Assembly (NCBI RefSeq): GCF_048403405.1
Contig: NZ_CP183129.1
Length of the DNA stretch: 64,000 nt
DNA from: Escherichia coli
Lineage (GTDB): Bacteria > Pseudomonadota > Gammaproteobacteria > Enterobacterales > Enterobacteriaceae
Strand: one strand, 5' to 3'
The translations under genes were made by a program, and so were the position numbers. Shown piece after piece: positions 1 through 26,172 of the stretch. The stretch's first letter is position 1; each line of letters opens with the position of its first letter. Below the pieces are notes generated by a model that was given only the letters and a program-made list of their open reading frames with translations, ran no database searches and was not told the DNA's origin.

Positions 1-570
1 CCTGGCAGTACAGGCTTCCCCTCTGACGGGATAGCCTGAAAAAATAACACAGAAAATTATTTGTTATAATTAATATAACTTACTCAAAAAAAAGCGACGA
101 GAAAATCAGCATCAACGAACAATAAGCGCCAATACGTGATAACAAATGGCAGCCATATTTATCTGCAGTATAAGCAATGGACAGGATAACCACTCCAGAA
201 ACCGTCAGCATAAAATCCATTTGAACTTCCCCGGACAAAATCGACTCATCTAAAGATTTACAGCTCTTTTTATTATCAATATGTTAAAAGTAAAATAAAC
301 AGATGTTCAATAACACGAATACAAAAACGTGCTGAAATTCAATGAATCCATTTCTGTGTCATCAATTAATAGTGATAAACATCCGGCTTCTTCCACCATC
401 GCACCGGACAGGCGACTATGAGGGGACAACGCCGCGCTCCGTTAACGCGGTAAACCCCGGTGTGTGTCGTTTTTGATTATCCCCGCACACTCGCGCAGAG
501 GAGTCTCCCTGTCGGGCTGCGGTCTCTGTTAATGCGGGGATACGGCGACAATACCGCGCATCAGCAAAAC

Positions 571-1044
571 CTATTTCAGGCACTGAGTGCGGATATAGTC
601 CTGCGCCCCTTCCAGCTGCTTCTGCATCAGCATCAACCGTTCTCTGAGAGTGAAATAATCCCGTTCAGCGGTGTCTGCCAGTTGGGGGCCGGTTGTATTA
701 TCCACGCGGGCGGTGCCGGTGGCTTCACGCACGGGACCTGGACAGGTGGCGTTGATACGCAGGCGCTTACGACCAGCGGCAACGTCAGCGCGAAGAGTTT
801 CATTTTCAGCTCTCGCATCGGCTAATTCCCTCGAGTATTTTGCATCGAGCGCAGCAACATCGCGCTGGCGCACCTGCATATCAGTAATGGTTGCGTTCGC
901 CAGCTTCAGTTCACTGGCTTTGTTATCGCGCTGCGCTTTGTAGGTAATCGCGTTATCACGGTAATGGTCTGTTGCCATCCACAGCGCTCCACAGGCCACC
1001 AGCAGAATAACGATAAACGCGGAAAGCATTCGGTTTATGTTCAC
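571..1044 (-). CDS. Rz-like i-spanin, last gene of the lysis cassette
   Basis: 157-aa ORF with N-terminal hydrophobic segment and charged/coiled-coil-like periplasmic part; fully contains an out-of-frame lipoprotein ORF (Rz1), the embedded spanin arrangement of lambdoid phages. Confidence 0.8.
633..818 (-). CDS. Rz1-like o-spanin lipoprotein, embedded in Rz in another frame
   Basis: Signal peptide ending in lipobox VSAC followed by proline-rich mature region ([14 protein letters not shown]); lies entirely inside 571..1044. Confidence 0.7.
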
Positions 1045-1172
1045 CCCAGCAGCCCCGACGAAGACAACATCATCCAGGCCATGGAAAGAAAAAGAGCAAC
1101 CAGCATTAGTGAAAATGAAATGCCGACAATTACACAGAGGATCTTCGCCAGCGTTATGAGTTTGTCTGACAT
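1041..1172 (-). CDS. small hydrophobic membrane peptide (43 aa), function unknown
   Basis: Internal ATG of the 73-aa ORF ([10 protein letters not shown]...); single TM helix; start of Rz overlaps its stop; no recognisable family. Confidence 0.35.
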
Positions 1173-1186
1173 GCTTAATCCTCCCT

Positions 1187-1369
1187 TCACGATTTCAACG
1201 CAATGACCAGTTTTGCCAGCCCATACAGCATCGGGGACACAGCAACACCGACCGCCACCCACTTAATGGCAAAAGCCAGTGCTCTGCTGATGTCATCAGT
1301 TACAGGCGCTTTCAGTTCAAGGCCGTTTTTCATAGTCAACCTCAACAGAATTCGTTTATACTTTTCCAT
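1187..1369 (-). CDS. small membrane-anchored protein (60 aa), possible lysis accessory
   Basis: ATG at 1369 preceded by AGGGAG Shine-Dalgarno; C-terminal hydrophobic helix; sits between endolysin and Rz. Confidence 0.4.
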
Positions 1370-1403
1370 GTTCTCCCTTGCCTTATCCAAGGTCAGAAAC
1401 ACA

Positions 1404-1436
1404 AAACCCCGCTTGCAGCCAACAAACGGGGTTTTT
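1404..1436. terminator. hairpin with flanking T/A runs between endolysin and downstream small gene
   Basis: aaccccg...cggggtt stem with ttttt on plus strand and T-rich tract on minus strand; large loop, so weak. Confidence 0.3.
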
Positions 1437-1525
1437 ACTTTTATTCACTTAGGTTTTGCCAGTTCTCAGGATTTCGTGTTATCCGTCCGCATTAGCCAAC
1501 GTCATTTTTCAACAAAATATTCTGC

Positions 1526-2059
1526 TTATTTGTCAATTCCCCAGCACGCCAGCGCGCTCTCCTGGTCACGCCGTGAGACCTGTCCATAGCAGTTATTTGA
1601 ACGAATACGGCAGTCTCTGCCACCGTCCTTAATCCACCAGCGAATCGCCTCACATGCTCCCCTGCGATCGCCAGCATTAATTCGTCTGTAAAACGTCGAC
1701 GGGAAACACTTACCGGGACCAATGTTGTACGGACAGAATGACGCGATCCCCGCTTTCTGGGGTTCGGTCAATGGCACTTTGATGTTTTTCTCCACCCATG
1801 CCAGCGCCTTATCACGCTCAATGGCGTTAACCCGGTCGCATTTTTCCTTCGACAACTTCATGCCCGGAACGACAGGTTTGCCATCCACCAGGATGGCACC
1901 GCGGCAGATGGTCCAGATACCCGCGCCATCACGGTATGCCGTGGTGTGGTTACCTTCCTTTTCATCCAGAAACTGGTCGAGAATGTCAGGCGCAGGCGCA
2001 CCAGCGGCAATCAGCGCCAGAACGGCAGCCGACAGGCCGTATCTGATTTTTGCGTTCAT
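1526..2059 (-). CDS. SAR-type phage endolysin (T4-lysozyme-like, GH24)
   Basis: N-terminal weakly hydrophobic Ala/Gly-rich signal-anchor-release segment (LSAAVLALIAAGAPAP) then E-x8-D-x5-T catalytic motif (EGNHTTAYRDGAGIWT); paired with a pinholin upstream. Confidence 0.85.
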   Translation of the reverse strand: MNAKIRYGLSAAVLALIAAGAPAPDILDQFLDEKEGNHTTAYRDGAGIWTICRGAILVDGKPVVPGMKLSKEKCDRVNAIERDKALAWVEKNIKVPLTEPQKAGIASFCPYNIGPGKCFPSTFYRRINAGDRRGACEAIRWWIKDGGRDCRIRSNNCYGQVSRRDQESALACWGIDK

Positions 2060-2164
2060 GGATATTTATCAGGATTTATCGGTTTCTGAGCCCTGGATAT
2101 GTTTATCAGTTCCAGCCTGTTGCCTCAGGCTGCTAACAGGTCAATACAATCATGAGGATTATTT

Positions 2165-2437
2165 ATGGACAATAACACCATTTCTCTACAGGAGTTGCTC
2201 GACAGCATTTCCAGGCTTCGGGAAGACGTGAATACCCTTACCGTCGCCTTCTCATATCTGGCATTCTCAATTCCAAGGGAACAGATGCAATCAACGCTGG
2301 CATCAATCCAGTTTGAATCATGCAATCCCAAATGGTCTCAGGAACAACAAGACTCTTTCAGGCGGCTTGCTGTATTACTGGATGAAAAATATGCTGGTAA
2401 AATTACCATTTCGGCGGACTCTTCAGAGAACCCGTAA
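2165..2437 (+). CDS. hypothetical 90-aa protein encoded antisense to the late operon
   Basis: ATG at 2165 with GAGGA Shine-Dalgarno 6 nt upstream; no TM or signal peptide; 3' end overlaps the convergent 114-aa gene by 35 bp. Confidence 0.45.
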   Translation: MDNNTISLQELLDSISRLREDVNTLTVAFSYLAFSIPREQMQSTLASIQFESCNPKWSQEQQDSFRRLAVLLDEKYAGKITISADSSENP

Positions 2438-2747
2438 TTATTCCCGGTAGTTTTCCTCTGTAGGTTATCAACACATCCTGCGCCTCTAAAATTACGGGGC
2501 GCTTTTCCGGCGACTGCTCATCCCCTTCACATAACCCGGCAGCAACATCCAGGAAGACCTGTCTGATGCTCCTTCTGGCTGCTGCCTCATAAAACTCCAG
2601 CGCGGCACCTTCAACACGGTCCAGCGAGATGTCCAGGTCAAAAATTTCACCGTCAAAGCGTTTTTTGTCCCGTAACGCTAAAGTTACCGTAACTTTATTC
2701 TCAAAATTGCGGATCCCTTTCACAATCAGTTTATAGTTTTGAGTCAT
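2403..2747 (-). CDS. hypothetical 114-aa protein between holin and endolysin
   Basis: ATG 4 nt after the holin stop with GGAGAG Shine-Dalgarno; no recognisable domain. Confidence 0.55.
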   Translation of the reverse strand: MTQNYKLIVKGIRNFENKVTVTLALRDKKRFDGEIFDLDISLDRVEGAALEFYEAAARRSIRQVFLDVAAGLCEGDEQSPEKRPVILEAQDVLITYRGKLPGIITGSLKSPPKW

Positions 2748-2751
2748 TGAA

Positions 2752-2967
2752 TTACTCTCCCCGTGCAGCCTTACGACGGTCCTCTCTGATTTTGAAATAC
2801 AGGTTAGTCAGATATGTCAGCAGCCCAAACAGCAGACTCCCCAGCACGCCTATTGCCGCCCACTGAGACGGGGAAACCCTGTCCAGCAACTGCAGGAACC
2901 AGTAGCCCGTTCCCACCGCTGACGTGGTGTATGACACACCTGTTGTGATTTTTTCCATCTGGTACAT
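2752..2967 (-). CDS. class II pinholin (phage 21 S21-like), dual-start motif
   Basis: [10 protein letters not shown]... two closely spaced Met starts; two TM segments; C-terminus ...[22 protein letters not shown] matches S21 as recalled. Confidence 0.8.
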
Positions 2968-3117
2968 ACCCCGTCTCCCGTTATCCGGAAGCTGACAACA
3001 ATAAAAAAAGCCACCAGTTAAGTACTGATGGCTCTGATAACTCATGCAGGCATCTCAGACGACCCACTGACACTACCGGTGAGTTTAACGATACCTTCCA
3101 TTTGGCTGGCTCACTTT

Positions 3118-4971
3118 TTATGATGATGCCGGTGCATTTATCTCCAGCACCAGACTTTCTATCTCAACGCCATACGCTGCATTTTTGGTAATATCCGTCA
3201 GCGTCAGCGCATTCAGCCCCAGTGTCAGACTGTCTTTTATGACCTGGAATGCCGGGCCAGCCACTCCATTCAGTTTCGGAGTAACCGTGGCACTGCCGGC
3301 GGTGAACACCAGCTCCAGCGTCTGCCAGTCGTTACTGTAATTCCCGAACTCGCCCAACTTTGTGTTTCCTGCTTTCTTGTGATGCATCAGATTCAGTTTG
3401 CCGTCTGTGGTCTGGGTGAAGAACGACATCAGGAACGGGTTACCAGTCCCGGTCATCGCCACGACGTCAGGTAACGCTACATCGGTATACAGATAAATTC
3501 CCAGACCGAACTGATTGTTGGTCAGTGCGCCTGACAGTCGAAACTTACAGCTCAGTCTGCCACCCCGTGTCAGCAGGGAGACTGCGTCATCCACCGGGCG
3601 CGTCAGGGACCAGGCTTTATTGCTCTGCTTGGTGATCTTAAATACACCATCTGACAACTGAATTCCGCCATTCTTAATGCTCCAGCCCTGCGCAGCAGCG
3701 TCTCCGGCTGTCGGCAACAGGGAGATTGTGCGTATGGATGCATCTTCAGACGGCCCCGATGGCGTGTCGCCGCCGGGCGAGAGTTTGATTTCCGGTGCCT
3801 TACCACTAATGAAGGCTAAGGTGCGACCGGCTACGTTCAGAATAGCAGTTGCCATACGATCGGGAATAATGCCACGACGCGCCCATGAGCTGAAATGCGT
3901 CGGGCGATTTGATGATACCCAGTTTTTGTTCGTTCGGGATGCCGAACCGTAATAACCAGACCCGACAATATCAGGATCTTCTGACGGGTTGTTTGTCGGT
4001 GTATTAACTCCGCTACCATCGGTCATAAAGGGAACAAAATAAATCTGCTGGGATTCTTTACCTTTATATGCACCATATACCACTTCATATTGCGTACCGT
4101 GTTCTTGTTTCCACGCGTATGTCGTGTCGCCACAAATCCAGGGGACTGATGCCGGACTTCCACCGTGACACTGCGCTGCCAGCCCGGCAAGGTCAGCACG
4201 GAACTGCTGTACCATTGCAAGAAATGCTGCTGGCTGCTGGGCGTAACTGGCATTCGTCATATCGAATTCCCCCTGCATCCAGCATATCGCCAGCAAAACG
4301 TTTTTCGGGTTTTTCTGCAATGCTGCCTTCGTGCGGAAAAGCAGATCCTGATATAACGGCTTACCCACTCCCCAGCGAGCCGAATCCTGACTGGCTCCCG
4401 TGGACTCGCTGAATGTCCCCTCCGTGCCCTGGGTGAATGCCGAACCACCACGACAGCATGGTACCAGCAGGATCCCCGCATTATTAGGGATATACGGAAG
4501 CAGTTTTTTGGCAATATGTAAGCCCTGTCCGACACAGCCGTACTGCCCTTTGCTCAGGTCAGCCCGGGGATGGTTAATCGTACTCATATCCTGAACATCA
4601 TGCAGACAATGGTCAGCAGGAATGATGTCGTTAAATACGCATACTTCACCACCGGGAGTCACTGTGTTACGACGGGCCAGTTGCTTAATGCGCGGATGGG
4701 GCGCATCGTATGAATCCGGAAGCGGAAGCCCTTCACCGTAAGCCATGGCATTGGATTGCCCGGCCAGTACGATGACGTAGTACCACTCCGGCTCAGTTGC
4801 ACCACTGACGACCACATCACCTTCTGCTGCAATCGCCTGCATCAGGGTATAAGGGGTTATGGCCACCGGACTACCAAACGGCTGCCAGCCCTCCTTCAGT
4901 TTTTGTGTCAGTCGTTTCGCAAGGTCTGACGGCGATGCCGCCCTGACCACGTCATAGTGTTTAAATGCCAT
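3118..4971 (-). CDS. nanS: prophage sialate O-acetylesterase (NanS-p-like, SGNH hydrolase)
   Basis: 617-aa protein with GQSN motif (VLAGQSNAMAYG) near N-terminus and long C-terminal beta-rich region; sits between the tRNA cluster and holin as in Stx phages. Confidence 0.75.
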   Translation of the reverse strand: MAFKHYDVVRAASPSDLAKRLTQKLKEGWQPFGSPVAITPYTLMQAIAAEGDVVVSGATEPEWYYVIVLAGQSNAMAYGEGLPLPDSYDAPHPRIKQLARRNTVTPGGEVCVFNDIIPADHCLHDVQDMSTINHPRADLSKGQYGCVGQGLHIAKKLLPYIPNNAGILLVPCCRGGSAFTQGTEGTFSESTGASQDSARWGVGKPLYQDLLFRTKAALQKNPKNVLLAICWMQGEFDMTNASYAQQPAAFLAMVQQFRADLAGLAAQCHGGSPASVPWICGDTTYAWKQEHGTQYEVVYGAYKGKESQQIYFVPFMTDGSGVNTPTNNPSEDPDIVGSGYYGSASRTNKNWVSSNRPTHFSSWARRGIIPDRMATAILNVAGRTLAFISGKAPEIKLSPGGDTPSGPSEDASIRTISLLPTAGDAAAQGWSIKNGGIQLSDGVFKITKQSNKAWSLTRPVDDAVSLLTRGGRLSCKFRLSGALTNNQFGLGIYLYTDVALPDVVAMTGTGNPFLMSFFTQTTDGKLNLMHHKKAGNTKLGEFGNYSNDWQTLELVFTAGSATVTPKLNGVAGPAFQVIKDSLTLGLNALTLTDITKNAAYGVEIESLVLEINAPASS

Positions 4972-5164
4972 GAATCCTCCCGGGCGGGATAATGTTGTGA
5001 GTCAGATAAGGAGCAGGCTGAAGTCCGGAAGTTACAGGACAATGGCAGAAGGGAGACTACAGCCCGCAATTCGAAAAAGACCGCGCAGTTGCGCAGAGTG
5101 ATTACTATGGGGTATTATTCGCCAGCTGAAATATTACTTCACGTTTTATTGTTTATTCCTTGCC

Positions 5165-5193
5165 GCCCGCGTCTCCCAGCGCGGGCTTTTTTT
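5165..5193 (+). terminator. intrinsic terminator oriented for the plus strand
   Basis: gcccgcg / cgcgggc 7-bp stem, 8-nt loop, then ttttttt. Confidence 0.6.
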
Positions 5194-5202
5194 GTCCATA
5201 AG

Positions 5203-5436
5203 AAAGCCCCTCCGGAGAGGGGCTAAAGCCGCGTATCTGTATCATCATGCACATGGTGCCGGGTGCCTCCCGGTGAGTTCAGCCCGGTGCCACTAAACCC
5301 GCGTCATTCTCGTTTTGATAATCAGAGATTATACCGTCACCAGTCGCCCCTCCGCTCAGGGGGATTCACCATGCGAAATTTTTTTAACAAATGCCCAGTC
5401 TGACAGGCAACTGTCAACTTACTGAATTGTGAGCAA
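5203..5436 (-). repeat. copy 1 of a tandem ~220-bp structured element (candidate sRNA unit)
   Basis: Direct repeat of 5690..5904 (roughly three-quarters identity by eye); shares the hairpins agcccctc-cgga-gaggggct and ggtgccgggtgcctcccggtga; on the minus strand the unit ends in hairpin plus T-tract. Confidence 0.6.
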
Positions 5437-5689
5437 CATAGCATTTAACGGGGAACCTGTTTTCTGCAGTAAAAAGGCCCACCGGAGCGGATGGGCCTGG
5501 AAGGATAGCGGTCATGTGATGCCGGTTTCCCGGTAACTCAGCACCGGTATCTGAGTCAACGTTTTCTCTACTGGGTCATTTCCGATACGCCCTGCCTGCT
5601 GACAGGCTTTCATCACATCTGAAAATATAGCACCCTGACTGATACTGTAGTACCTAAGGTTCCAGAAACTGTGATGTATCCGGCACAGA

Positions 5690-5904
5690 AAAGCCCCTCC
5701 GGAGAGGGGCTGGAGAGTGGCGCTATGTGCCATTGCATGGTGCCGGGTGCCTCCCGGTGAATTCAGTACCAGCACCTGAATCCGCGATTATCCCATATAC
5801 CTACTCGCTGATTGCCCCTCCGCACAGGGGGATTCACCATGCCAGTTTCTTTTAACAAACTCCCCGCAAACCAGACAACAGTCAACCGCCTGAATTGTGA
5901 GACA
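5690..5904 (-). repeat. copy 2 of the tandem structured element
   Basis: Same hairpin set and shared segments (gggggattcaccatgc, tgaattgtgag) as copy 1. Confidence 0.6.
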
Positions 5905-5945
5905 TTTAAAAAAAAGCCCGCAAAAGCGAGCCAGGGAAAATAAGT

Positions 5946-6022
5946 GTGGCGCGTTGTACTGGATTCGAACCAGTGACCGATTGCTTAGAAGGCAATTGCT
6001 CTGTCCGGCTGAGCTAACAACG
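5946..6022 (-). tRNA. argO: tRNA-Arg (anticodon UCU), phage argO-like
   Basis: Reverse complement folds as canonical cloverleaf: acceptor GCGTTGT/ACAACGC, anticodon loop CTTCTAA, T-loop TTCGAAT, 3' CCA. Confidence 0.85.
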
Positions 6023-6035
6023 CAGGATACAGATA

Positions 6036-6113
6036 ATGGACCGCCTTCGGGGACCCGAACTCCGCGCAACCAGCTTCGAAGGCTGGCGCTCTTTCCTGAT
6101 GAGCTAATGGCGG
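6036..6113 (-). tRNA. argN: tRNA-Arg-like (anticodon UCG inferred), phage argN-like, possibly degenerate
   Basis: Cloverleaf with anticodon stem CCAGC/GCTGG and loop CTTCGAA, but one acceptor mismatch, one T-stem mismatch and atypical T-loop TTCGGGT. Confidence 0.6.
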
Positions 6114-6120
6114 TATGTGA

Positions 6121-6196
6121 TGGTGGCCCTTGCTGGATTTGAACCAGCGACCTGGCGATTATGAGTCGCTCGCTCTCACCACTGAGCTAAAGGGCC
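6121..6196 (-). tRNA. ileZ: tRNA-Ile2-like (anticodon CAU), phage ileZ-like
   Basis: Reverse complement GGCCCTTTAGCTCAGTGGTGAGAGCG...CTCATAA...TTCAAATCCAGCAAGGGCCACCA closely resembles E. coli ileX as recalled. Confidence 0.85.
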
Positions 6197-6245
6197 GGAA
6201 GCAGAATAATAATGGTGCGTAATTAATTCTGCAATCTCATCCGTT

Positions 6246-6572
6246 TCAAACGATTAAATCCTGAACTTCCCTGACTGTCTGCTCAAAACGTCCGGTCTCC
6301 AGTTCAACGCCAATCGCACGACGCCCGAGCGCCAGTGCCGCTTTTACCGTTGAACCTGAGCCCATAAAAAAATCTGCAACCAGGTCTCCCGGACGACTGC
6401 TTGCGCTGATTATCTGCTGCAGCATTTCTGCCGGTTTTTCGCACGGATGTTTCCCGGGATAGAACTGCACCGGTTTATGCGTCCAGACATCGGTATACGG
6501 CACCTGCGCTGTCACGCCAAAATACCGCCGCAGTCGGCATTCACAACCACAAGCGTGTTTAACGTACTGCAC
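6246..6572 (-). pseudogene. 5'-truncated DNA methyltransferase remnant (C-terminal half only)
   Basis: Carries HPCEKP and FMGSGST motifs but no upstream DPPY-type catalytic motif; in-frame stop 2 codons upstream of the GTG; only ~110 bp to the next gene. Confidence 0.6.
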
Positions 6573-6585
6573 AGCTTTTCAGACA

Positions 6586-6612
6586 TAAAAAGGCCGCCTG
6601 ATAGCAGCCTTT
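6586..6612 (-). terminator. intrinsic terminator downstream of the PP2C gene
   Basis: On minus strand aggctgc-tatcag-gcggcct stem (one G-U pair) followed by ttttt. Confidence 0.5.
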
Positions 6613-6682
6613 TCACATTAAAATTAAGTTTTTCTTTACTCTGTAGTATGGGAAATTAGCATTCCCTACTGGGTTTATACAA

Positions 6683-7426
6683 CTAATCTGACGTCACACG
6701 CACCATTATACTTACTAAAGAAAAGTCATCATCAGGTCCGGCTCTCTCTATACGACGCAAAATACCATTAGAAAACTTCTGACTATTACTCATAGTATTT
6801 GATGTAAATCTGGGGCGTTTTTCCCAAACGTTATGAACTCCATCAGACATGATACACAGATGATACAACCCGTTAATACCAGGCAAATCTTTCCACGGGA
6901 TAAAATCACAGTCGTATTCCATATCAACATTTGAGGCTATGGCAGTCGTTAAGATATTTTTTCCCGGTTTATTCTTCAAATCTCTGGGTTTAAAAATATT
7001 CTGATCAATTAACATCTGATGTCTGGTATCGTCCTTCGTCAATTGATATGCTTTCTTTTCTCCAATGCAATACAAGCGACAATCACCAATATGACCAATA
7101 ATAATTCCGCTATCACAAACATAACAAAAGGTAAGTGTAGTAGCAGCTTTATCGAACTCATCATTAACTTCAGCTAACGACATAACTTTTCGCTTAACTT
7201 CAGCAAATACATTCGGAACTGCATCAAAAGATAAACTTGTCAATGCTGAAAGTTCAGCGATTGCCATGGATGAAGCATAACTGGCACCAGAGTATGAACC
7301 TACACCATCAGCTACGGCAAATAAGATGCCGTCTCCTACAATTTTTGGAGGAAGCAATGAATCTTCGTTGACCCTACCTGGTTCTTTTGGATACGAGAAT
7401 GATGAAGTCGCTATCAGCTGAATCAT
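6683..7426 (-). CDS. PP2C-family (PPM) Ser/Thr protein phosphatase
   Basis: Motifs NEDS, FAVADGVGS, GHIGDCR, MSDGV in PP2C order; ATG with AAGGAG Shine-Dalgarno; 103 bp downstream of the kinase gene. Confidence 0.8.
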   Translation of the reverse strand: MIQLIATSSFSYPKEPGRVNEDSLLPPKIVGDGILFAVADGVGSYSGASYASSMAIAELSALTSLSFDAVPNVFAEVKRKVMSLAEVNDEFDKAATTLTFCYVCDSGIIIGHIGDCRLYCIGEKKAYQLTKDDTRHQMLIDQNIFKPRDLKNKPGKNILTTAIASNVDMEYDCDFIPWKDLPGINGLYHLCIMSDGVHNVWEKRPRFTSNTMSNSQKFSNGILRRIERAGPDDDFSLVSIMVRVTSD

Positions 7427-7529
7427 GACTCACTCCTTAAAAAAGAATGCGCAAAATCAAACGCCACATCATCTATTGTCTGATATCTATCATCTTTATC
7501 CATCCTTGTGCACTTAGCTATGATAGGCT

Positions 7530-8186: not shown

Positions 8187-8258
8187 TAAGCTCACCGACC
8201 TAAATTGTAACAATATCCATATATTACAACTACAGATAAAAAGGTCCACAGAGTTAAG

Positions 8259-8287
8259 CAAAAAACCCGCACATTTGAGCGGGTTTA
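8259..8287 (-). terminator. intrinsic terminator immediately after the Q-like gene (tR'-like)
   Basis: Minus strand aaacccgc-tcaaatgt-gcgggtttttt. Confidence 0.6.
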
Positions 8288-8332
8288 TACACTTTACAGC
8301 AATATATCACATTTACATAAAATATATGCTAT

Positions 8333-9378: not shown

Positions 9379-9390
9379 CAGTCACCTCTT

Positions 9391-10437: not shown

Positions 10438-10438
10438 G

Positions 10439-16910: not shown

Positions 16911-16925
16911 AATCGTTTCTCAGAT

Positions 16926-18426: not shown

Positions 18427-18491
18427 CTCTTCTGATACCGAATCTTTTTACTCACAAATTGCCGGAAGTGATCCGGTATGAATATTGCGAG

Positions 18492-18917: not shown

Positions 18918-19182
18918 GAATCAACTCCGATGCATTTGGTGTGTTAGCCTTGAATCCAACAGGTAAGCCGTCGGTTGGATTCGGGTAAATATCAGGCCGG
19001 AGTTCATGAGGTGTAACCTCGAAATTCGTTACTTCAGCAACACGTAATGCTTTTTCAGGGCTGAATCTTTCATAGCCCCCCAGCACTCGACTTACATGCA
19101 CCTGAGATAAACCCGTTAGCTTCCCAAACTGTAGCTGGGTGATATGTTTCTCTTTTAAATAGTCTCTTAAGTTCATAGCCAA
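18901..19182 (-). CDS. YdaS-like Cro-type HTH protein
   Basis: 93 aa; HTH (QLQFGKLTGLSQVHVSRVLGG) and HELRPDIYP segment; divergent from the repressor gene. Confidence 0.6.
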   Translation of the reverse strand: MAMNLRDYLKEKHITQLQFGKLTGLSQVHVSRVLGGYERFSPEKALRVAEVTNFEVTPHELRPDIYPNPTDGLPVGFKANTPNASELIHENQA

Positions 19183-19208
19183 CCTTCTACGTTATGCCTC
19201 GAGCAAAT

Positions 19209-19223
19209 ATTAGCCCCGCTAAT
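19209..19223. promoter_or_regulatory. perfect 15-bp palindrome ATTAGCcccGCTAAT in the divergent immunity promoter region (candidate operator)
   Basis: Lies between divergent YdaS-like and DicA-like genes. Confidence 0.4.
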
Positions 19224-19283
19224 TTTAAAGATCAATAGCCAGACTATCTTTGATAATATTGGTAAAACAAATAAACTCTATGT

Positions 19284-19745
19284 ATGAAAAAAACACGCGA
19301 AGTGATTGCAACTCCAGAAGCGAGCAAGAATTTAAAAGCCGCATGGAATGCAAGAAAAAAAGAGCTGAAGCTGACTCAAGAGCTGGCGGCTGAGTTGTTG
19401 GGATTCGAATCTCAAGGCACCGTTAGCCAGTATCTGAACGGCAAGATACCGGTAAATACCGACGCTGCGCTAAAATTTGCGGCTCTGTTAAAGGTAAAAC
19501 CAGAGGACATTCGAGAAGACCTTAAAGACTTAATGAATTATGTAAGATCATCAGATACTTATGATGATAACTTTTCAGGCAAAGGATGGAGGCTGGTCAA
19601 TGAAGAACAGGCAGAGTTACTTAACCTCTTCGAGATTCTACCTGCGTCAGAAAAAGCCAAACTCCTTAACCAGCTACGTGGACTAAACAAGCTCTACGAG
19701 GAAGCCTTCGAGAACATGCTGGCACTAAAGAAACGTAACCAGTAG
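19284..19745 (+). CDS. DicA-like prophage repressor (XRE HTH)
   Basis: 153 aa; HTH (LTQELAAELLGFESQGTVSQYLNG); C-terminal LLNLFEILPASEKAKLLNQL resembles DicA as recalled. Confidence 0.7.
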   Translation: MKKTREVIATPEASKNLKAAWNARKKELKLTQELAAELLGFESQGTVSQYLNGKIPVNTDAALKFAALLKVKPEDIREDLKDLMNYVRSSDTYDDNFSGKGWRLVNEEQAELLNLFEILPASEKAKLLNQLRGLNKLYEEAFENMLALKKRNQ

Positions 19746-19777
19746 CCACCGCTCACTACCCCATCCACAACAAAAAA

Positions 19778-19801
19778 ACCGACGTCTTAGTCGGTTTTTT
19801 T
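19778..19801 (+). terminator. intrinsic terminator after the repressor gene
   Basis: accgac-gtctta-gtcggt then ttttttt. Confidence 0.7.
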
Positions 19802-19998
19802 GTGCCATAACTTCTGCAAATCAGCTGTATAACTAATATTTTTCCCTTGAAAAAACATTTACATAGTTACCAAATCAAAAATATCATACGCCATACTGTT
19901 GACTTAAAATATCCGCGTTACTAATATTTCTATCAAGAACAGCACGGCGCTGTAGGTTTTAGTTCCGCCACCCGGCGTTAAGGGGAAATGAGGTCAGC

Positions 19999-20154
19999 AT
20001 GGATACTATCGAGCTTGGCAACAACGAATCTCTGGTGTACGGCGTGTTTCCCAACCAGGACGGCACATTCACCGCGATGACGTATACCAAAAGCAAAACG
20101 TTTAAAACCGAAAATGGTGCCCGTCGCTGGCTGGAAAGAAACTCAGGTGAGTGA
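19999..20154 (+). CDS. ydfA: YdfA-like small protein (51 aa)
   Basis: ATG with GAGG Shine-Dalgarno; MDTIELGNNESLVYGVFPNQDG... matches Qin YdfA as recalled. Confidence 0.6.
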   Translation: MDTIELGNNESLVYGVFPNQDGTFTAMTYTKSKTFKTENGARRWLERNSGE

Positions 20155-20155
20155 T

Positions 20156-20284
20156 ATGGATTTCGACACAATCATGGAAAAGGCTTACGAAGAATACTTC
20201 GATGGTCTTGCCGAAGGCGAAGAAGCTCTCAGCTTCAGTGAATTTAAACAGGCGCTTTCCAGTTCGGGAAAATCTAACGGCTGA
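20156..20284 (+). CDS. ydfB: YdfB-like small protein (42 aa)
   Basis: ATG 1 nt after ydfA stop with AGGTGAG Shine-Dalgarno. Confidence 0.55.
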   Translation: MDFDTIMEKAYEEYFDGLAEGEEALSFSEFKQALSSSGKSNG

Positions 20285-20313
20285 TAAGCGAAACAGCACC
20301 GCGAGGAATCAGT

Positions 20314-20532
20314 ATGCAGAAACGAGAACCCGTCATCATCGCGCCAGACTATACCGATGATGAACTTTATGAGTGGATGCGCCAGAAAATTAATGCAGTG
20401 CAGGATCTGAAATGGGCCAATGAAGCCAGGACTAAGCAGGCTGAAAATCTGTCCGCTCTGGAGCAGGATATCACCAGGCTGGAAAAAGCAGCGGCATTAA
20501 GCATTGCCAGAATGGTTACATACCCACGTTAA
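20314..20532 (+). CDS. ydfC: YdfC-like protein (72 aa)
   Basis: ORF in the dicB-operon position of ydfC. Confidence 0.55.
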   Translation: MQKREPVIIAPDYTDDELYEWMRQKINAVQDLKWANEARTKQAENLSALEQDITRLEKAAALSIARMVTYPR

Positions 20533-20554
20533 TAGCTAACCAACGAGGCTAATA

Positions 20555-20956
20555 ATGGAATTTAAAGATTTACCAATGCCATTCCAGGAAATGGCAGCGA
20601 ATGTGGTTCGCTCTCAACTGGCGACTCTTGACCTGAGTACTGTAGAAAAGGAAACCATCGATACTATATCCGGTAACGTGCGTCGTGCCTTTATAGGTCT
20701 GTATGAAGAGAAGCGCCTATTCGGCGGACAGAATTCGCCTGAAAACAAGAATCAAGCAAATGATGAGAAGCTGAAACACATTATCGCCTTACTTTTGGAA
20801 GACGCAAAACGTCTACAGCAACTGGAACCAAATGCAGGCACAGAGGCCCGCATTTGGATTGCCATGAAATCACTCAAATGTGAAAGCAGTGATTATTTCA
20901 AAACAACAATTAAAACTACTCAACTTTCGGGAGAGCTACTGAAGAAATTGCCATAA
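20555..20956 (+). CDS. hypothetical 133-aa protein, insertion between ydfC and dicF
   Basis: ATG with GAGG Shine-Dalgarno; no recognised domain. Confidence 0.5.
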   Translation: MEFKDLPMPFQEMAANVVRSQLATLDLSTVEKETIDTISGNVRRAFIGLYEEKRLFGGQNSPENKNQANDEKLKHIIALLLEDAKRLQQLEPNAGTEARIWIAMKSLKCESSDYFKTTIKTTQLSGELLKKLP

Positions 20957-21194
20957 GAGCATGGTCTTTCTCTTGTTCTGCAAGATGAGCATTAATACCT
21001 GGTATGGTTTTTTCAAATTTATCTATCTGTTGAATAACAACTTCGCGGTATACGTTTGTTTTTGTACCACCAAGCGCAGCCGTTAATGCAGAAAGCATAT
21101 TTAGTATCATATCAGTGCGATATGAAAGAATCCTGATAGCTTCATCTTGTTCTTCAATAATAGATTGCAGGGCCTCAATTTGCTTTTTATCCAT
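20916..21194 (-). CDS. hypothetical 92-aa protein antisense to the dicB operon
   Basis: ATG 21194 preceded by AGGAGG at ideal spacing; predicted helical; 3' end overlaps the 133-aa gene by 41 bp. Confidence 0.5.
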   Translation of the reverse strand: MDKKQIEALQSIIEEQDEAIRILSYRTDMILNMLSALTAALGGTKTNVYREVVIQQIDKFEKTIPGINAHLAEQEKDHALMAISSVALPKVE

Positions 21195-21529
21195 TTCACC
21201 CTCCTGAGGGTTGGTAATTAAGGAGTTCTCCACTGGTCAGGTGGAGTGCGTGCGCCGGACACGGGTGAGCATCCGGCACTGACAGTTTACTGAAAGGATA
21301 TGTCCCTGAAAAGTCAGGGCATAACGCGAAAGCGCACGGCGAAATTGGTCTCTCTGTACGGTGTCGTTAAATTTAGTTCGACCGTGCGCTTCCGGTTGTG
21401 GCACTCCGCGAAATGGCGCGGCGGTAAGTATGGCTGGGGTTTCCTCCATTGCTCCAGAAAATGCACCGGGTTGTCAGGTTGACCATACGCTTAAGTGACA
21501 ACCCCGCTACAACGCCCTCTGTTATCAAT

Positions 21530-21587
21530 TTTCTGGTGACATTTGGCGGTATCAGTTTTACTCCGTGACTGCTCTGCCGCCCTTTTT
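21530..21587 (+). ncRNA. dicF: DicF small RNA
   Basis: tttctggtgacatttggcggtatcagttttactccgtgactgctctgccgcccttttt is near-identical to K-12 DicF as recalled, including terminator hairpin. Confidence 0.85.
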
Positions 21588-21765
21588 AAAGTGAATTTTG
21601 TGATGCGGTGAATGCGGCTATGCGCACGCGGAACAGTTAAAGCAGTAAGGCGGTATTTTACGGGCGTAACGAGCATCAACTAACCCGGCGTTAATTGTTA
21701 ACTGGTTAACGTCACCTGGAGGCACCAGGCACTGCATCACAAAATTCATTGTTGAGGACGCGATA

Positions 21766-21954
21766 ATGGAAACGTTATTACCAAACGTTAATACGTCTGA
21801 AGGTTGTTTTGAAATTGGTGTCACTATCAGTAACCCTGTATTTACTGAAGATGCCATTAACAAGAGAAAACACGAACGGGAGTTATTAAATAAAATATGC
21901 ATTCTTTCAATGCTGGCCCGTTTACGTCCGATACAAAAAGGATGTGCACAATGA
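21766..21954 (+). CDS. dicB: DicB cell-division inhibitor
   Basis: 62 aa; METLLPNVNTSEGCFEIGVTISNPVFTEDAINKRK... matches DicB as recalled. Confidence 0.85.
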   Translation: METLLPNVNTSEGCFEIGVTISNPVFTEDAINKRKHERELLNKICILSMLARLRPIQKGCAQ

Positions 21955-22142
21955 ATACAGCATTTGCACTTGTTCTGACAGTTTTTCTTGTTTCCGGAGA
22001 GCCAGTTGATATTGCAGTCAGTGTTCACAGGACAATGCAGGAGTGTGTGACTGCAGCAACCGAACAGAAAATTCCCGGTAACTGTTACCCGGTCGATAAA
22101 GTTATTCACCAGGATAATAACGAAATCCCGGCAGGTCTTTAA
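21951..22142 (+). CDS. ydfD: YdfD-like small membrane protein
   Basis: 63 aa from ATG 21951 (overlaps dicB stop); N-terminal hydrophobic helix. Confidence 0.75.
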   Translation: MNTAFALVLTVFLVSGEPVDIAVSVHRTMQECVTAATEQKIPGNCYPVDKVIHQDNNEIPAGL

Positions 22143-22234
22143 AACAGTTCCGTAATAAATATCCGGTTTCATTCTTATATGCCAGCAATGGCAGGGATTT
22201 GTTCACCCTTAAATCTGTAATGAGGTAAAACAAA

Positions 22235-24706
22235 ATGAGTAAAGTCTTTATTTGCGCCGCCATTCCGGACGAACAGGCAATAAAGGAAGAAGGTGCAGTC
22301 GCTGTAGCCACTGCCATTGAAGCCGGTGATGAACGTCGCGCCCGCGCAAAATTTCACTGGCAATTCCTGGAACATTATCCGGCTGCTCAGGACTGCGCTT
22401 ATAAATTTCTTGTCTGCGAGGATAAACCCGGTATACCCCGCCCTGCCCTAGATTCCTGGGATGCTGAATATATGCAGGAAAACCGCTGGGATGAGGCGTC
22501 TGCTTCCTTTGTCCCGGTTGAGACTGAATCAGATCCGATGAACGTCACTTTTGACAAGCTGGCCCCTGAAGTACAGAACGCTGTCATGGTTAAGTTCGAC
22601 ACATGTGAAAACATCACCGTTGATATGGTGATTAGCGCGCAGGAACTGTTGCAGGAAGACATGGCAACATTCGACGGACATATCGTTGAAGCGTTGATGA
22701 AAATGCCAGAAGTTAACGCCATGTATCCGGAGCTTAAGCTGCATGCCATCGGGTGGGTTAAGCATAAATGTAAGCCTGGTGCCAAATGGCCCGAAATTCA
22801 GGCAGAGATGCGCATCTGGAAAAAACGTCGCGAAGGTGAACGCAAGGAAGCCGGAAAATACACGTCTGTTGTTGATCTCGCCCGCGCCAGAGCCAATCAA
22901 CAGCACACTGAAAATTCAACAGGAAAAATCAACCCGGTCATTGCTGCCATTCATCGCGAATACAAGCAGACATGGAAAACACTGGATGACGAACTGGCCT
23001 ACGCTCTCTGGCCTGGTGATGTGGATGCCGGAAACATTGACGGCAGCATCCATCGCTGGGCAAAAAATGAAGTTATCGACAACGACCGCGAAGACTGGAA
23101 GCGTATCTCGGCATCAATGCGCAAACAGCCTGATGCCCTTCGCTACGACCGCCAGACTATTTTTGGCCTTGTCCGTGAACGTCCGATCGACATTCACAAA
23201 GACCCTGTGGCACTGAACAAATACATTACTGAATACCTGACTACAAAGGGCGTGTTTGAAGATGAAGGAACAAATCAGAGCGCAACTGATACTCTCTCGT
23301 CGCCAGTACCAGAAACTGATGCAGTGGAAACGGCAATTCCGGACAACGAAAAAACCGAATGCAAAGTGGAAGTCGAACCATCTGTAGAACGTGAGGGGCC
23401 GTTCTACTTCCTCTTCACCGACAAGGATGGCGAAAAATACGGTCGCGCAAACAAACTTTCTGGTCTGGATAAGGCGCTGTCTGCTGGGGCTACTGAAATC
23501 ACGAAAGAAGAATATTTCGCCCGCAAAAACGGTACATACTCAGGTTCACAACAAAATACTGGTGCATCTGACACGACCGCACAACCAGGGTCAGTAAAAG
23601 TTACCGCTGACGAAGTAAACAAAATTATGCAGGCAGCCAATATCAGCCAGCCTGACGCCGATGAACTGCTTGCAGTATCACGTGGTGAATTTGTTGAAGG
23701 GATTAGCGACCCGAATGATCCGAAATGGGTTAAGGGGAACCAGACCCGCGATTCTGTGAACCAGAACCAGCAAGAAACGGAACAGAACGACCAGAAAGCG
23801 GAACAAAACAGCCCAAATGCGTTACAAAACGAGCCAGAAACGAAACAGCCTGAATCAGTGGCGCAACAGGAAGTGGAAAAAGTCTGCACCGCCTGCGGTC
23901 AGACCGGCGGCGGCAACTGCCCTGATTGTGGCGCGGTAATGGGCGACGCAACATACCAGGAAACATTCGATGAAGAGTATCAGCCTGAAGTTCAGGAAGA
24001 TGATCCGGAGGAAATGGAAGGCGCTGAACATCCACACAAGGAGAACACTGGCGGCAATCAGCATCACGATAGCGATAATGAAACTGGCGAGACGGCAGAT
24101 CACTCAATTAAGGTGAACGGTCATCAAGAAATCACATCCACCAGCAGGACGTGTGACCATCTAATGATCGACCTTGAAACCATGGGAAAAAATCCTGATG
24201 CCCCGATCATCTCAATAGGTGCAATATTTTTCGATCCGCAAACCGGAGATATGGGACCGGAATTTAGTAAGACTATCGATCTGGAAACTGCTGGCGGAGT
24301 CATTGATCGGGACACCATTAAATGGTGGCTTAAGCAATCACGCGAAGCGCAATCTGCCATTATGACCGATGAAATCCCGTTAGATGATGCACTGTTACAA
24401 TTGCGGGAATTTATCGACGAAAACTCCGGTGAATTTTTTGTTCAGGTTTGGGGAAATGGAGCCAACTTCGACAACACGATTTTGCGCCGTTCATACGAAC
24501 GGCAGGGGATCCCCTGCCCGTGGCGTTACTACAACGATCGCGATGTACGCACAATCGTTGAGCTGGGGAAAGCCATAGACTTCGATGCCAGAACGGCTAT
24601 TCCATTCGAAGGTGAGCGCCATAATGCACTTGATGACGCCCGTTACCAGGCAAAATACGTTTCAGCTATCTGGCAAAACCTGATCCCAAATCAGGCTGAT
24701 TTTTAA
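22235..24706 (+). CDS. YdfE-like prophage exonuclease, full length (C-terminal DnaQ-like DEDDh 3'-5' exonuclease domain)
   Basis: 823 aa; C-terminal MIDLETMG and HNALDDARYQ motifs; central acidic/Gln-rich linker with C-x2-C-x8-C-x2-C zinc ribbon (CTACGQTGGGNCPDCG). Confidence 0.7.
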   Translation: MSKVFICAAIPDEQAIKEEGAVAVATAIEAGDERRARAKFHWQFLEHYPAAQDCAYKFLVCEDKPGIPRPALDSWDAEYMQENRWDEASASFVPVETESDPMNVTFDKLAPEVQNAVMVKFDTCENITVDMVISAQELLQEDMATFDGHIVEALMKMPEVNAMYPELKLHAIGWVKHKCKPGAKWPEIQAEMRIWKKRREGERKEAGKYTSVVDLARARANQQHTENSTGKINPVIAAIHREYKQTWKTLDDELAYALWPGDVDAGNIDGSIHRWAKNEVIDNDREDWKRISASMRKQPDALRYDRQTIFGLVRERPIDIHKDPVALNKYITEYLTTKGVFEDEGTNQSATDTLSSPVPETDAVETAIPDNEKTECKVEVEPSVEREGPFYFLFTDKDGEKYGRANKLSGLDKALSAGATEITKEEYFARKNGTYSGSQQNTGASDTTAQPGSVKVTADEVNKIMQAANISQPDADELLAVSRGEFVEGISDPNDPKWVKGNQTRDSVNQNQQETEQNDQKAEQNSPNALQNEPETKQPESVAQQEVEKVCTACGQTGGGNCPDCGAVMGDATYQETFDEEYQPEVQEDDPEEMEGAEHPHKENTGGNQHHDSDNETGETADHSIKVNGHQEITSTSRTCDHLMIDLETMGKNPDAPIISIGAIFFDPQTGDMGPEFSKTIDLETAGGVIDRDTIKWWLKQSREAQSAIMTDEIPLDDALLQLREFIDENSGEFFVQVWGNGANFDNTILRRSYERQGIPCPWRYYNDRDVRTIVELGKAIDFDARTAIPFEGERHNALDDARYQAKYVSAIWQNLIPNQADF

Positions 24707-24770
24707 TGTTCAACCCCGGTCGTTGCCCACCAGCTATAGTGGCGGCGACCATGATTAGCGAACGACGCTC

Positions 24771-25019
24771 ATGGCAAGACTTATTCTGCTCACTGAGTGG
24801 GCAAAAGAGGAATTCAGTGAACCGGTCCCTACTCCGAGTACGTTAAGTAAATACGCTAAAGCCGGAATGATATTTCCTCTCCCCAAAAAAGTTGGAAGAC
24901 GCTGGCGAGTGGATCCGCAAGCTCGCTTTGTCGGAATGGTAAACAAGCCGGAGGTGATCGCCACAGATCACCCTGCTTTGAAGAGGATACTGGAAGATGG
25001 CGCGCCCGCGAAAATATAA
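24771..25019 (+). CDS. excisionase (Xis/AlpA-like)
   Basis: 82 aa; MIFPLPKKVGRRWRVDPQARF resembles lambda Xis; 3' end overlaps int start. Confidence 0.7.
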   Translation: MARLILLTEWAKEEFSEPVPTPSTLSKYAKAGMIFPLPKKVGRRWRVDPQARFVGMVNKPEVIATDHPALKRILEDGAPAKI

Positions 25020-26127
25020 AACCGATGTTCCGGGATTATCTCCGTATTTTGACAAAAGAAATAACAAAGTTTACTGGCGTTACAGGCATCCCATAACAGG
25101 CAAAAATCACGGTCTCGGCAGTATTGACCAGAAACTGGCAGAAACTATTGCAGCAGAAGCGAACAGCCGTCTTGCCCGGCAGCAAATGGAACAAATGCTC
25201 AGTCTGCAGGAGAAAATTATTAGTGATACCGGCGGTTCATCAACCGTTACCATTTTTCTGAATAATTACAGAAAAATTCAACAGGAAAGATATGAAAACG
25301 GCGAGATCAAACTCAACACGCTGAAACAGAAAGCGGCCCCTCTCAGGGTATTTGATGAACGTTTTGGCACCAGACCGTTAGATGCCATAACCGTAAAAGA
25401 TGTGGTATCAGTACTGGAAGAGTACAAGGCCAGAGGACATAACAGAATGGGACAAATTTTCAGGAAAGTACTGATCGATGTTTTCCGGGAAGCTCAGCAA
25501 ACGGGCGATGTCCCGCCAGGCTTTAACCCTGCAGAATCGGCAAAAAAACCGCAGGTGCGGATATCAAGACAGCGACTGACTTTTGATGAGTGGATGATGA
25601 TTTATAACGCAGCGGAAAAGAATGGTTACTTTTTACAGCGCGGTATGCTGCTGGCACTGATGACAGGCCAGCGCCTTTCAGATATTTGCAAAATGCAATT
25701 TTCGGATATCCGGGATGGTTATCTTCATGTCGAACAGCAAAAAACAGGAACCCGGATTGCCATCCCTCTGGCTCTGCGTTGCGATAAATTAAATCTCACC
25801 CTGGATGATGTAGTGTCATCCTGCCGCGATTGCGTTCTTAGTCCGTGGCTATTGCACCACCATCACGCGAAAGGGACAGCTAAGCGCGGCGGGATGGTTA
25901 AGCCAGCAACATTAACCGTTGCATTTAAAAAAGCCCGGGATTCTGTGGATTACAACTGGCGTGCTAATGGCACCCCACCCTCTTTCCATGAGCAGAGATC
26001 TTTATCAGAGCGATTGTTCAGAGAGCAGGGGGTTGATACCAAAATTTTGCTAGGCCATTCGAATCAAAAAATGACCGATATTTACAACGATGTACGCGGT
26101 AAGGAGTGGAAAAAACTGGTCATTTGA
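24997..26127 (+). CDS. phage integrase (tyrosine recombinase)
   Basis: 376 aa; C-terminal catalytic region ...LLGHSNQKMTDIYNDVRG; ends 45 bp from the ompW stop. Confidence 0.9.
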   Translation: MARPRKYKTDVPGLSPYFDKRNNKVYWRYRHPITGKNHGLGSIDQKLAETIAAEANSRLARQQMEQMLSLQEKIISDTGGSSTVTIFLNNYRKIQQERYENGEIKLNTLKQKAAPLRVFDERFGTRPLDAITVKDVVSVLEEYKARGHNRMGQIFRKVLIDVFREAQQTGDVPPGFNPAESAKKPQVRISRQRLTFDEWMMIYNAAEKNGYFLQRGMLLALMTGQRLSDICKMQFSDIRDGYLHVEQQKTGTRIAIPLALRCDKLNLTLDDVVSSCRDCVLSPWLLHHHHAKGTAKRGGMVKPATLTVAFKKARDSVDYNWRANGTPPSFHEQRSLSERLFREQGVDTKILLGHSNQKMTDIYNDVRGKEWKKLVI

Positions 26128-26133
26128 TGACCA

Positions 26134-26169
26134 GTTTTGCAGAAGAGTTTTGCAGAGGTTTTGCAGAGA
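26134..26169. repeat. three tandem ~12-bp repeats (GTTTTGCAGAG) at the prophage-chromosome junction
   Basis: gttttgcagaag / agttttgcagag / gttttgcagaga between int stop and ompW stop. Confidence 0.6.
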
Positions 26170-26172
26170 AAA

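Follow-up and report, generated by a model that had tools for sequence, protein, structure and literature searches.

A mosaic lambda-like PPompW-family prophage at the 3′ end of ompW in Escherichia coli

Positions 1-26306 of a 64,000-nucleotide stretch of Escherichia coli DNA (RefSeq assembly GCF_048403405.1, contig NZ_CP183129.1; the whole stretch is referred to below as the window) represent, with high confidence, the right half of a temperate, lambda-like PPompW-family prophage, integrated in the 3′ end of ompW and recently acquired by horizontal transfer, the opposite strand on which the region reads relative to K-12 being a matter of record orientation. The prophage is of an already known kind, i.e., a member of a named and widely distributed family at its normal site. 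PPompW prophages were named by Nakamura et al. (2021, PLoS Pathog; PMC8112680), with a 121-bp attachment (att) sequence in ompW and a presence in 44% of 767 complete genomes. An initial annotation of the window had described a mosaic lambdoid prophage beside ompW; gene families and the att core agree with this and place the element, more exactly, inside ompW. The same annotation would have given up its reading for a known named prophage at its usual site, and PPompW at ompW is exactly that.

Results

The prophage boundary lies inside ompW

Gene families were assigned by Pfam, PHROGs, PADLOC and Rfam, and the RefSeq annotation of an identical prophage copy in the genome of MSB1_7C was also used. 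The element and its junction with the chromosome comprise:

1..26306, no strand: visible part of the prophage, with lysis, late-regulatory, nin-like, replication, immunity, recombination and integration modules (whole element ~50.9 kb, head and tail genes beyond the window start)
24771..25019, plus strand: excisionase (Pfam PF07825; 100% amino acid identity to PPompW XisE)
24997..26127, plus strand: lambda-type tyrosine integrase with an Arm-DNA-binding domain (Pfam PF09003, PF00589; 99.5% amino acid identity to PPompW_EH1846 IntE)
26135..26168, plus strand: GTTTTGCAGA, repeated directly three times between the stop codons of int and ompW, candidate arm-type Int-binding sites
26173..26826, minus strand: hybrid ompW, 217 amino acids, with the codons in 26173-26275 and the core phage-derived (five additional amino acids)
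26276..26306, no strand: att core (crossover region), 31 bp, GCGGTGGTATCGATATCCATGTACCAGACTG, inside ompW, from a three-way alignment

The 31-bp core is common to the empty site of strain 4621, the junction in the window and the far junction of MSB1_7C, reading GCGGTGGTATCGATATCCATGTACCA(C/G)ACTG; it is unique in the window, and sequence identity switches from prophage level to core level exactly there. The phage boundary therefore lies about 130 bp inside the ompW open reading frame (ORF), and not at 26172 as previously annotated, i.e., phage DNA makes up the final ~130 bp of ompW. This phage-supplied 3′ end is 79% identical to the native one and carries a 15-nt insertion, so that the OmpW of the lysogen has 217 amino acids versus 212. 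The empty site of strain 4621 consists of yciE followed by a 639-bp ompW, while in MSB1_7C the displaced native 3′ end of ompW, 126 bp long, adjoins yciE. As stated in the initial annotation, yciE follows ompW in K-12; in the window, ompW directly follows the prophage. The far junction, which lies outside the window, is known from the identical MSB1_7C copy.

These junctions point to a mechanism in which a lambda-type tyrosine integrase would insert the phage at the 3′ end of ompW via the 31-bp core, contained in an ompW-like attP of ~130 bp. The phage would replace the last ~42 ompW codons and leave behind an intact, slightly altered ompW, the native end staying at the far junction by yciE. 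Four occurrences of the 8-mer TTTGCAGA are found in the 64 kb, three of them at 26135-26168, and one further copy of the GTTTTGCAGA repeat is present in the opposite arm of the MSB1_7C prophage; by analogy with lambda, these repeats are candidate arm-type Int-binding sites. Integration inside the 3′ end of a protein-coding gene, with a substitute 3′ end carried by the phage and few amino acid changes, is known from phage 21 and e14 in icd. The gene-preserving strategy is the same here, but the target gene and the integrase are different, and the changes fall between the last two β-strands of an outer-membrane barrel.

The element belongs to the PPompW family

The integrase gene is 99.47% identical at the nucleotide level over 1131/1131 nt to intE of PPompW_EH1846, used as a proxy for the integrase of strain 112648, well within the threshold by which the family was searched for in PMC8112680 (>90% identity over >90% of the length). 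In addition, ompW is split with the ompW-like att duplication of ~121 bp typical of the family, the near junction being in the window and the far one being seen in the identical MSB1_7C copy. The similarity to PPompW_EH1846 (GenBank LC567839; PMC8112680) extends beyond the integrase and excisionase to the ompW site with its ompW-like att of ~121-136 bp, the int-xis-exo-ydfD-dicB order (92% nucleotide identity, as over the 5.2 kb from int to DicF as a whole), the O and P replication proteins (89-90% amino acid identity) and the YdfU-RusA-Q order.

In contrast, PPompW_EH1846 has a dicA/dicC immunity region where the window prophage has a 153-amino-acid repressor with YdaS/YdaT, and carries paa where the latter has a RosmerTA-like pair, QueH and a kinase/PP2C module; head genes also differ, being lambda-type in the MSB1_7C copy of the window variant. 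The lysis cassette, removed by insertion sequences (IS) in the O145 PPompW copies, is intact in the window. The window variant also lacks a type III secretion system (T3SS) effector locus and the 21-bp attB-in-PP, and its ompW end has the 15-nt insertion. Specifically, the 21-bp attB-in-PP_1 GTCATGCAGTTAAAGTGGCGG (PMC8112680) was found neither in the window (up to three mismatches allowed) nor in the MSB1_7C prophage loci, and no T3SS effector genes are annotated at the far end of the MSB1_7C prophage, which places the element outside the PPompW subgroup of Shiga toxin-producing and enteropathogenic E. coli that carries attB-in-PP_1 and an effector locus. A prophage-in-prophage attB was accordingly rejected for this element.

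The MSB1_7C prophage is identical to the window prophage at 24,834/24,834 compared positions and measures 50,888 bp from core to core, flanked by yciE and the 126-bp ompW 3′ fragment on one side and by ompW on the other. As stated in the initial annotation, the window begins inside the prophage, leaving head and tail genes and the other att junction out of view; these are seen only in the MSB1_7C copy, which carries, outside the range of the window, a lambda-type morphogenesis set (Nu1/A, portal, protease, D, E, FI, FII, Z, U, V, G, T, H, M, L, K, I, J, stf and tfa). Its annotated pseudogenes are limited to lom and small fragments, and its terminase and lysis genes are also complete. The visible part follows the lambdoid organization, with a tyrosine integrase and an excisionase by the att junction and a divergent repressor/Cro-type region, followed by replication genes, Q and a lysis cassette.

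The int-ompW junction is widespread and was found in 32% of complete E. coli genomes (1,714 of 5,426). Near-identical copies of this particular variant (≥80% of the query covered) occur in 23 complete genomes and are already annotated publicly.

Recent horizontal acquisition

The two closest chromosomal relatives, 4621 and MS 69-1, have an empty ompW-yciE site and share an IS200C marker with the window; in 4621, the adjacent core matches at 100% identity over 7.7 kb. The identity of the prophage to its copies in other hosts exceeds that of the adjacent core:

MSB1_7C: prophage identity 100%; adjacent core 99.26%
VR50: prophage identity 99.98%; adjacent core 98.66%
BEN2908: prophage identity 99.94-99.98%; adjacent core 98.10%

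A prophage identity of 99.9-100% against core sequences that differ by 0.7-1.9%, with the switch at the att core, indicates a recent horizontal acquisition of a mobile phage. The host lineage would thus have gained the element recently, as a mosaic whose modules have relatives in Qin, PPompW and Shiga toxin (Stx) phages. It is very unlikely that the element is instead an old, vertically inherited cryptic remnant like Qin. Such an origin would account for the many Qin homologs among its genes and for the IS150 insertion, frameshifted kinase and methyltransferase pseudogene of this copy, and would agree with the apparent defectiveness of the PPompWs that have been closely examined (PMC8112680). 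However, it is at odds with the empty site in the closest relatives, with the near-identity of the prophage across hosts whose cores have diverged, with the MSB1_7C copy, which is identical and has its head, tail, terminase and lysis genes complete, and with an integrase unlike that of Qin and without a match to intQ.

The IS200C copy itself lies at 34044-34755, between yciU and oppF, with an Rfam STnc490 match at 34621-34744. It is absent from K-12 and MSB1_7C, and an IS200-family element at yciU-oppF was found in only seven complete genomes, four of them at 100% identity, including 4621, MS 69-1 and TUM1226. This copy is a useful lineage marker.

The chromosomal segment is not inverted

The core block at 26171-64000 is collinear with K-12 positions 1,274,709-1,314,660 on the opposite strand, at ~98% identity, the only differences being insertion sequences, and no inversion breakpoint is found within the 64-kb window. 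Strain 4621, which has the closest core, and MSB1_7C, which has the identical prophage, show the same orientation as the window, at about 2.8-2.9 Mb. Both records begin at dnaA on the plus strand, while dnaA is on the minus strand in MG1655 (K-12); as dnaA lies on the strand opposite to ompW in each of these genomes, their relative orientation is unchanged. In VR50, whose record is K-12-style, the window matches the minus strand at 1.37-1.39 Mb. GC skew is -0.038 in the window core and +0.029 in the K-12 block, a sign reversal expected for a plain reverse complement with the same direction of replication. The "inverted segment" is an artefact of the reading direction of dnaA-first records.

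The earlier view of a block from ompW to narL truly inverted relative to K-12, e.g., by recombination between prophages, is hence contradicted on each of these grounds, and we regard it as exceedingly improbable. It drew on the block reading opposite to the K-12 strand and could appeal to the prophage-mediated inversions with PPompW and ydfJ prophages that are on record (PMC8112680), yet these would flip the terminus-side segment past the prophage and not ompW-narL, while the 64 kb are fully collinear with K-12 without a breakpoint, and both orientation and GC skew fit a whole chromosome simply written on the other strand.

Two further observations concern this chromosomal part. The tRNA-Tyr genes tyrT and tyrV (51738-51941) are 34 nt apart versus ~209 nt in K-12, which suggests that the repeat units of the tyrT spacer and RtT region differ in number. 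Between ompW and yciC, at ~27066-27155, this strain and its relatives carry a short fragment of a YkgJ-family pseudogene; another intra-prophage attB has been reported to resemble the ykgJ-ecpE region (PMC8112680).

A Qin-type recombination arm with a different immunity region

The gene inventory of the initial annotation was essentially right when compared with the ORFs, the RefSeq annotation of the identical copy and Pfam, and the relationships that it proposed for single modules can be made more precise. Next to the integration genes lie:

19999..20532, plus strand: ydfA, ydfB and ydfC homologs (annotation of the identical copy; YdfA 98% and YdfC 94% amino acid identity, DNA 96% to Qin)
21531-21582, plus strand: small RNA (sRNA) DicF (Rfam RF00039, 77 bits)
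21766-21954, plus strand: dicB (90% amino acid identity to Qin DicB)
21951-22142, plus strand: ydfD (94% amino acid identity to Qin YdfD)
22235..24706, plus strand: exonuclease of 823 amino acids, with an Rv2179c-like 3′-5′ exonuclease domain at its C-terminus; it is the full-length form of ydfE, a pseudogene in K-12

The ydfABC-DicF-dicB-ydfD-ydfE block is 90-98% identical to Qin in amino acids and 92.7-96.3% in nucleotides, the N-terminus of YdfE reaching 96%; two small ORFs of unassigned function lie between DicF and ydfC. The Qin-like left arm proposed earlier stands for all these genes with the exception of dicA: the candidate dicA ortholog, i.e., the repressor, was rejected at 38% identity over 42 amino acids, and DicC has no match anywhere in the window, so that the dicA/dicC pair of Qin is not present. 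In addition to this block, hokD (100%), ydfU (85%) and essQ-ydfR-rrrQ (79-89%) are shared with Qin of K-12 in the same order and orientation. By contrast, Qin is located at ydfJ, differs in its (pseudo)integrase, has the dicA/dicC immunity missing here, and lacks the replication, nanS, tRNA and morphogenesis modules; its ydfE is a pseudogene, against the full-length form in the window. Consistently, the window integrase gives no blastp match to Qin IntQ, and the site is ompW and not ydfJ.

Immunity and replication are encoded by:

15681-16106, minus strand: DUF977 protein (Pfam)
16122-16892, minus strand: DUF1627 protein (Pfam)
16926-17387, minus strand: lambda-P-family "P" protein (Pfam PF17948/PF06992 pair with O; O/P 89-90% amino acid identity to PPompW O/P)
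17380-18420, minus strand: DnaT-domain "O" protein (the same Pfam pair and the same identity range)
18492-18917, minus strand: YdaT-family protein, CII analog (Pfam PF15943/PF06254 pair with YdaS; 32% amino acid identity to Rac YdaT)
18901-19176, minus strand: YdaS-family protein, Cro analog (the same Pfam pair; 32% amino acid identity to Rac YdaS)
19284..19745, plus strand: XRE-type helix-turn-helix (HTH) repressor of 153 amino acids, CI/DicA analog (Pfam HTH_3 only)

No S24 peptidase domain was detected by Pfam in the repressor. The regulatory plan would be that of a non-cleavable XRE repressor facing an operon of YdaS (Cro-like) and YdaT (CII-like), followed by O and P. A search for operator repeats in the 107-bp intergenic region between repressor and YdaS gave a single weak, uninformative inverted repeat of 13 nt. 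Rac-like YdaS/YdaT and O/P genes had also been proposed; the YdaS and YdaT families are indeed present, but at only 32% amino acid identity, and O and P show no detectable similarity to Rac YdaU/YdaV. At the DNA level, similarity to Rac is limited to short stretches of 77-87%, and a Rac-like replication and immunity region was rejected at the level of orthologs.

An IS150 copy (IS3 family), overlooked in the initial annotation, lies in the rightward early operon and separates the replication genes from Q:

14110..15552, minus strand: IS150, 1,443 bp, orfA and orfB, with a 3-bp GAG target duplication, in the DUF977-queH intergenic region

Its ends read TGTACTG...CAGTACA, its ORFs encode 173 and 283 amino acids, and it is 99.6-99.9% identical to annotated IS150 copies. 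It is missing from all near-identical prophage copies, and its junction occurs in none of the 5,426 complete genomes; other copies of the prophage carry other elements, i.e., an IS66-family element in the endolysin of BEN2908 and IS3 and ISEc23 elsewhere. Given its position between the replication genes and Q, IS150 is likely to be polar on late-gene activation, which it probably impaired in this copy after acquisition.

Cargo genes

The nin-like region and the segment downstream of Q contain:

13395..14060, minus strand: QueH-family epoxyqueuosine reductase (Pfam PF02677, E 1e-65; phrog_3217)
13002..13327, minus strand: hokD/sok type I toxin-antitoxin (HokD 100% amino acid identity to Qin HokD; Rfam sok, 120 bits)
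12186-12836, minus strand: RmrT-like protein (PADLOC RmrT, E 4.6e-25, positions 5-195 of 198)
11102-12205, minus strand: RmrA-like protein with HTH and M78 peptidase domains (PADLOC RmrA, E 6e-105, positions 2-342 of 370; Pfam HTH_3 and Peptidase_M78)
7530-8186, minus strand: eukaryotic-type Ser/Thr kinase (Pfam; PADLOC mad6 and PD-T4-6 kinase models, E 1e-40 to 1e-32)
6683-7426, minus strand: PP2C phosphatase (Pfam)
6246..6533, minus strand: DNA methyltransferase gene remnant without its N-terminus (Pfam; annotation of the identical copy)

For epoxyqueuosine reduction, the E. coli enzyme is QueG. The RmrT- and RmrA-like genes are adjacent, as expected for a RosmerTA gene pair, overlap by 20 nt, lie in the nin-like region, and are labeled by the Prokaryotic Genome Annotation Pipeline (PGAP) only as "hypothetical" and "helix-turn-helix domain-containing protein". 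Their sequence similarities suggest that the pair at 11102-12836 is a RosmerTA-like defence toxin-antitoxin; with the kinase/PP2C pair and hok/sok it makes up a defence-type cargo that may act in defence. The kinase/PP2C module, downstream of Q, has a low GC content (37%). In comparison with VR50 and BEN2908, one nucleotide is deleted from a T-run at 7539, so that the kinase has 218 instead of 254 amino acids (loss of the last 36), whereas the intact version overlaps the PP2C start codon (kinase region 7530-8261). The deletion is also present in MSB1_7C, which leaves a genuine deletion or a homopolymer sequencing error common to both records.

A late region shared with Stx phages but without stx

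The late region is composed of:

9391-10437, minus strand: DUF968/YdfU HNH-like protein (Pfam, PHROGs; 85% amino acid identity to Qin YdfU)
9019-9378, minus strand: RusA (Pfam/PHROGs)
8333-9022, minus strand: antiterminator Q (Pfam/PHROGs)
5947..6196, minus strand: tRNA cluster as in Stx phages, with anticodons CAU (Ile by PGAP, Met by ARAGORN), UCG (Arg) and UCU (Arg)
5194-5403 and 5681-5871, minus strand: two tandem STnc100-family prophage sRNA units (Rfam, 165 and 136 bits)
3118..4971, minus strand: NanS-p-type sialate O-acetylesterase (Pfam DUF1737, SASA and DUF6645; 85-91% nucleotide identity to Stx phages)
2752-2967, minus strand: P21-family class II holin of 71 amino acids (PF04971, E 9e-33), with a dual start (Met1/Met4, MYQMEK)
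2403-2747, minus strand: YdfR (80% amino acid identity to Qin YdfR)
1526-2059, minus strand: signal-anchor-release (SAR)-type endolysin of 177 amino acids (89% amino acid identity to Qin RrrQ)
571-1029, minus strand: Rz (lysis cassette 571..2967)
633-818, minus strand: Rz1 lipoprotein, embedded in Rz (same cassette)

The holin is 79% identical in amino acids to Qin EssQ. The endolysin has a weakly hydrophobic, Gly/Ala-rich N-terminus RYGLSAAVLALIAAGAPAP and an E-x8-D-x5-T triad motif EGNHTTAYRDGAGIWT, and shows homology to the structures of R21 (3HDE/3HDF) and RrrD (4ZPU), with E ~1e-16. Both proteins belong to phage 21 families, in agreement with the pinholin/SAR-endolysin cassette proposed earlier, and release of the endolysin from the membrane is predicted from its sequence. 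Together with the modules described above, the genome plan is that of a standard lambdoid phage: int-xis-exo, Qin-type dicB/DicF/ydfABC, immunity, O/P, nin-like cargo, Q, tRNAs/sRNAs/nanS, and holin/SAR endolysin/Rz/Rz1.

The Stx-phage-like tRNAs and nanS noted from the start were likewise recovered. Q, the tRNAs (CAU, UCG, UCU), nanS-p, the P21-type holin, the 177-amino-acid endolysin and Rz/Rz1 are all shared with Stx phages (933W, Stx2 phage 86 and Stx1a phages), with nanS and the lysis genes at 85-91% nucleotide identity. The window prophage differs from these phages by the absence of stx, by its integrase and site, and by the kinase/PP2C module between Q and the tRNAs. No stx gene was found, and the ORF list contains no ORF of more than 93 amino acids in the interval 4972-6245, which holds the two STnc100 units. 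Each unit ends in a strong terminator hairpin, with a third, weaker match at 5469-5642. The STnc100 sRNAs are already known from prophages, as a family tied to esterase genes of phages and with a relationship to PasD (bioRxiv 10.64898/2026.05.13.724894).

The STnc100 units occupy, between the tRNA cluster and nanS, the position of stxAB in Stx phages. This, together with the tRNA trio and the identity of nanS-p and the lysis genes to those of Stx1a and Stx2 phages, would be compatible with a former Stx-converting phage that lost stxAB. Such a history is nevertheless quite improbable, as neither an stx ORF nor a remnant is present, homology to Stx phages ends at ~5392-5432, and the same late layout is common to many stx-negative lambdoid prophages, PPompW_EH1846 among them having tRNAs but no stx. 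Module exchange suffices to explain the Stx-like late region, and no loss of stx is needed.

The phage-supplied end alters one segment of OmpW

The phage ompW end alters only the segment between the last two β-strands: the last strand VRLDPWVFMFSAGYRF is unchanged in amino acids, with only three synonymous differences in 16 codons. At least three alleles of the segment exist in E. coli, i.e., the native NYKLGGAQQHDS, KYKSGVTTVKDS in most PPompW lysogens, and the window variant KYKSDGRKLAKGSYSDN with five additional amino acids; a phage ompW end of the KYKSDGRKLAKGSYSDN type was found at ≥99% identity in 105 records. By general barrel topology, the segment between the last two strands should be extracellular loop 4, the last loop, an assignment for which the hybrid protein was also matched to the OmpW structures 2F1T and 2MHL. 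An AlphaFold2 model of the hybrid OmpW, built on a five-sequence alignment, was unusable (mean predicted local distance difference test score 32).

Discussion

The gene content, the att core, the empty sites in close relatives and the identity contrasts between prophage and core converge on a recently acquired PPompW prophage in its usual place. Several points weigh against this interpretation. The repressor lacks a recognizable autocleavage domain. The far junction of the window genome lies outside the window, and a rearrangement beyond the window start is possible, all the more as inversions between PPompW and ydfJ prophages occur in some O145:H28 strains (PMC8112680). The closely examined PPompWs, i.e., the O145:H28 copies and carriers of the 21-bp attB, all seemed defective (PMC8112680). 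Finally, no sequenced free phage is identical to the element, the best record covering 63% of the early arm at 94% identity; as neither arm is matched beyond 63%, the only sign of phage activity is that copies in different hosts are nearly identical.

Two further proposals can be considered. PPompW integration may be a lysogenic conversion of the OmpW surface, and, separately, the variant in the window may represent an intact, currently spreading PPompW phage, whereas the published, closely examined PPompWs seemed defective. Taken jointly, these proposals are unlikely. OmpW is the receptor of colicin S4. It has also been reported as the receptor of E. coli phage RB68 (bioRxiv 10.64898/2026.04.02.716166). 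If the proposal on the OmpW surface is true, recognition by OmpW-dependent phages or by colicin S4 could be altered, and the lysogen could thereby be protected.

The dnaA-first orientation of records is a trap for scans in which windows are compared with K-12. Beyond this, the wider meaning of the finding is small and consists mainly in a correct annotation, with, as by-products, a precise att core in ompW, defence-type cargo, and evidence for recent movement of this prophage between E. coli lineages.

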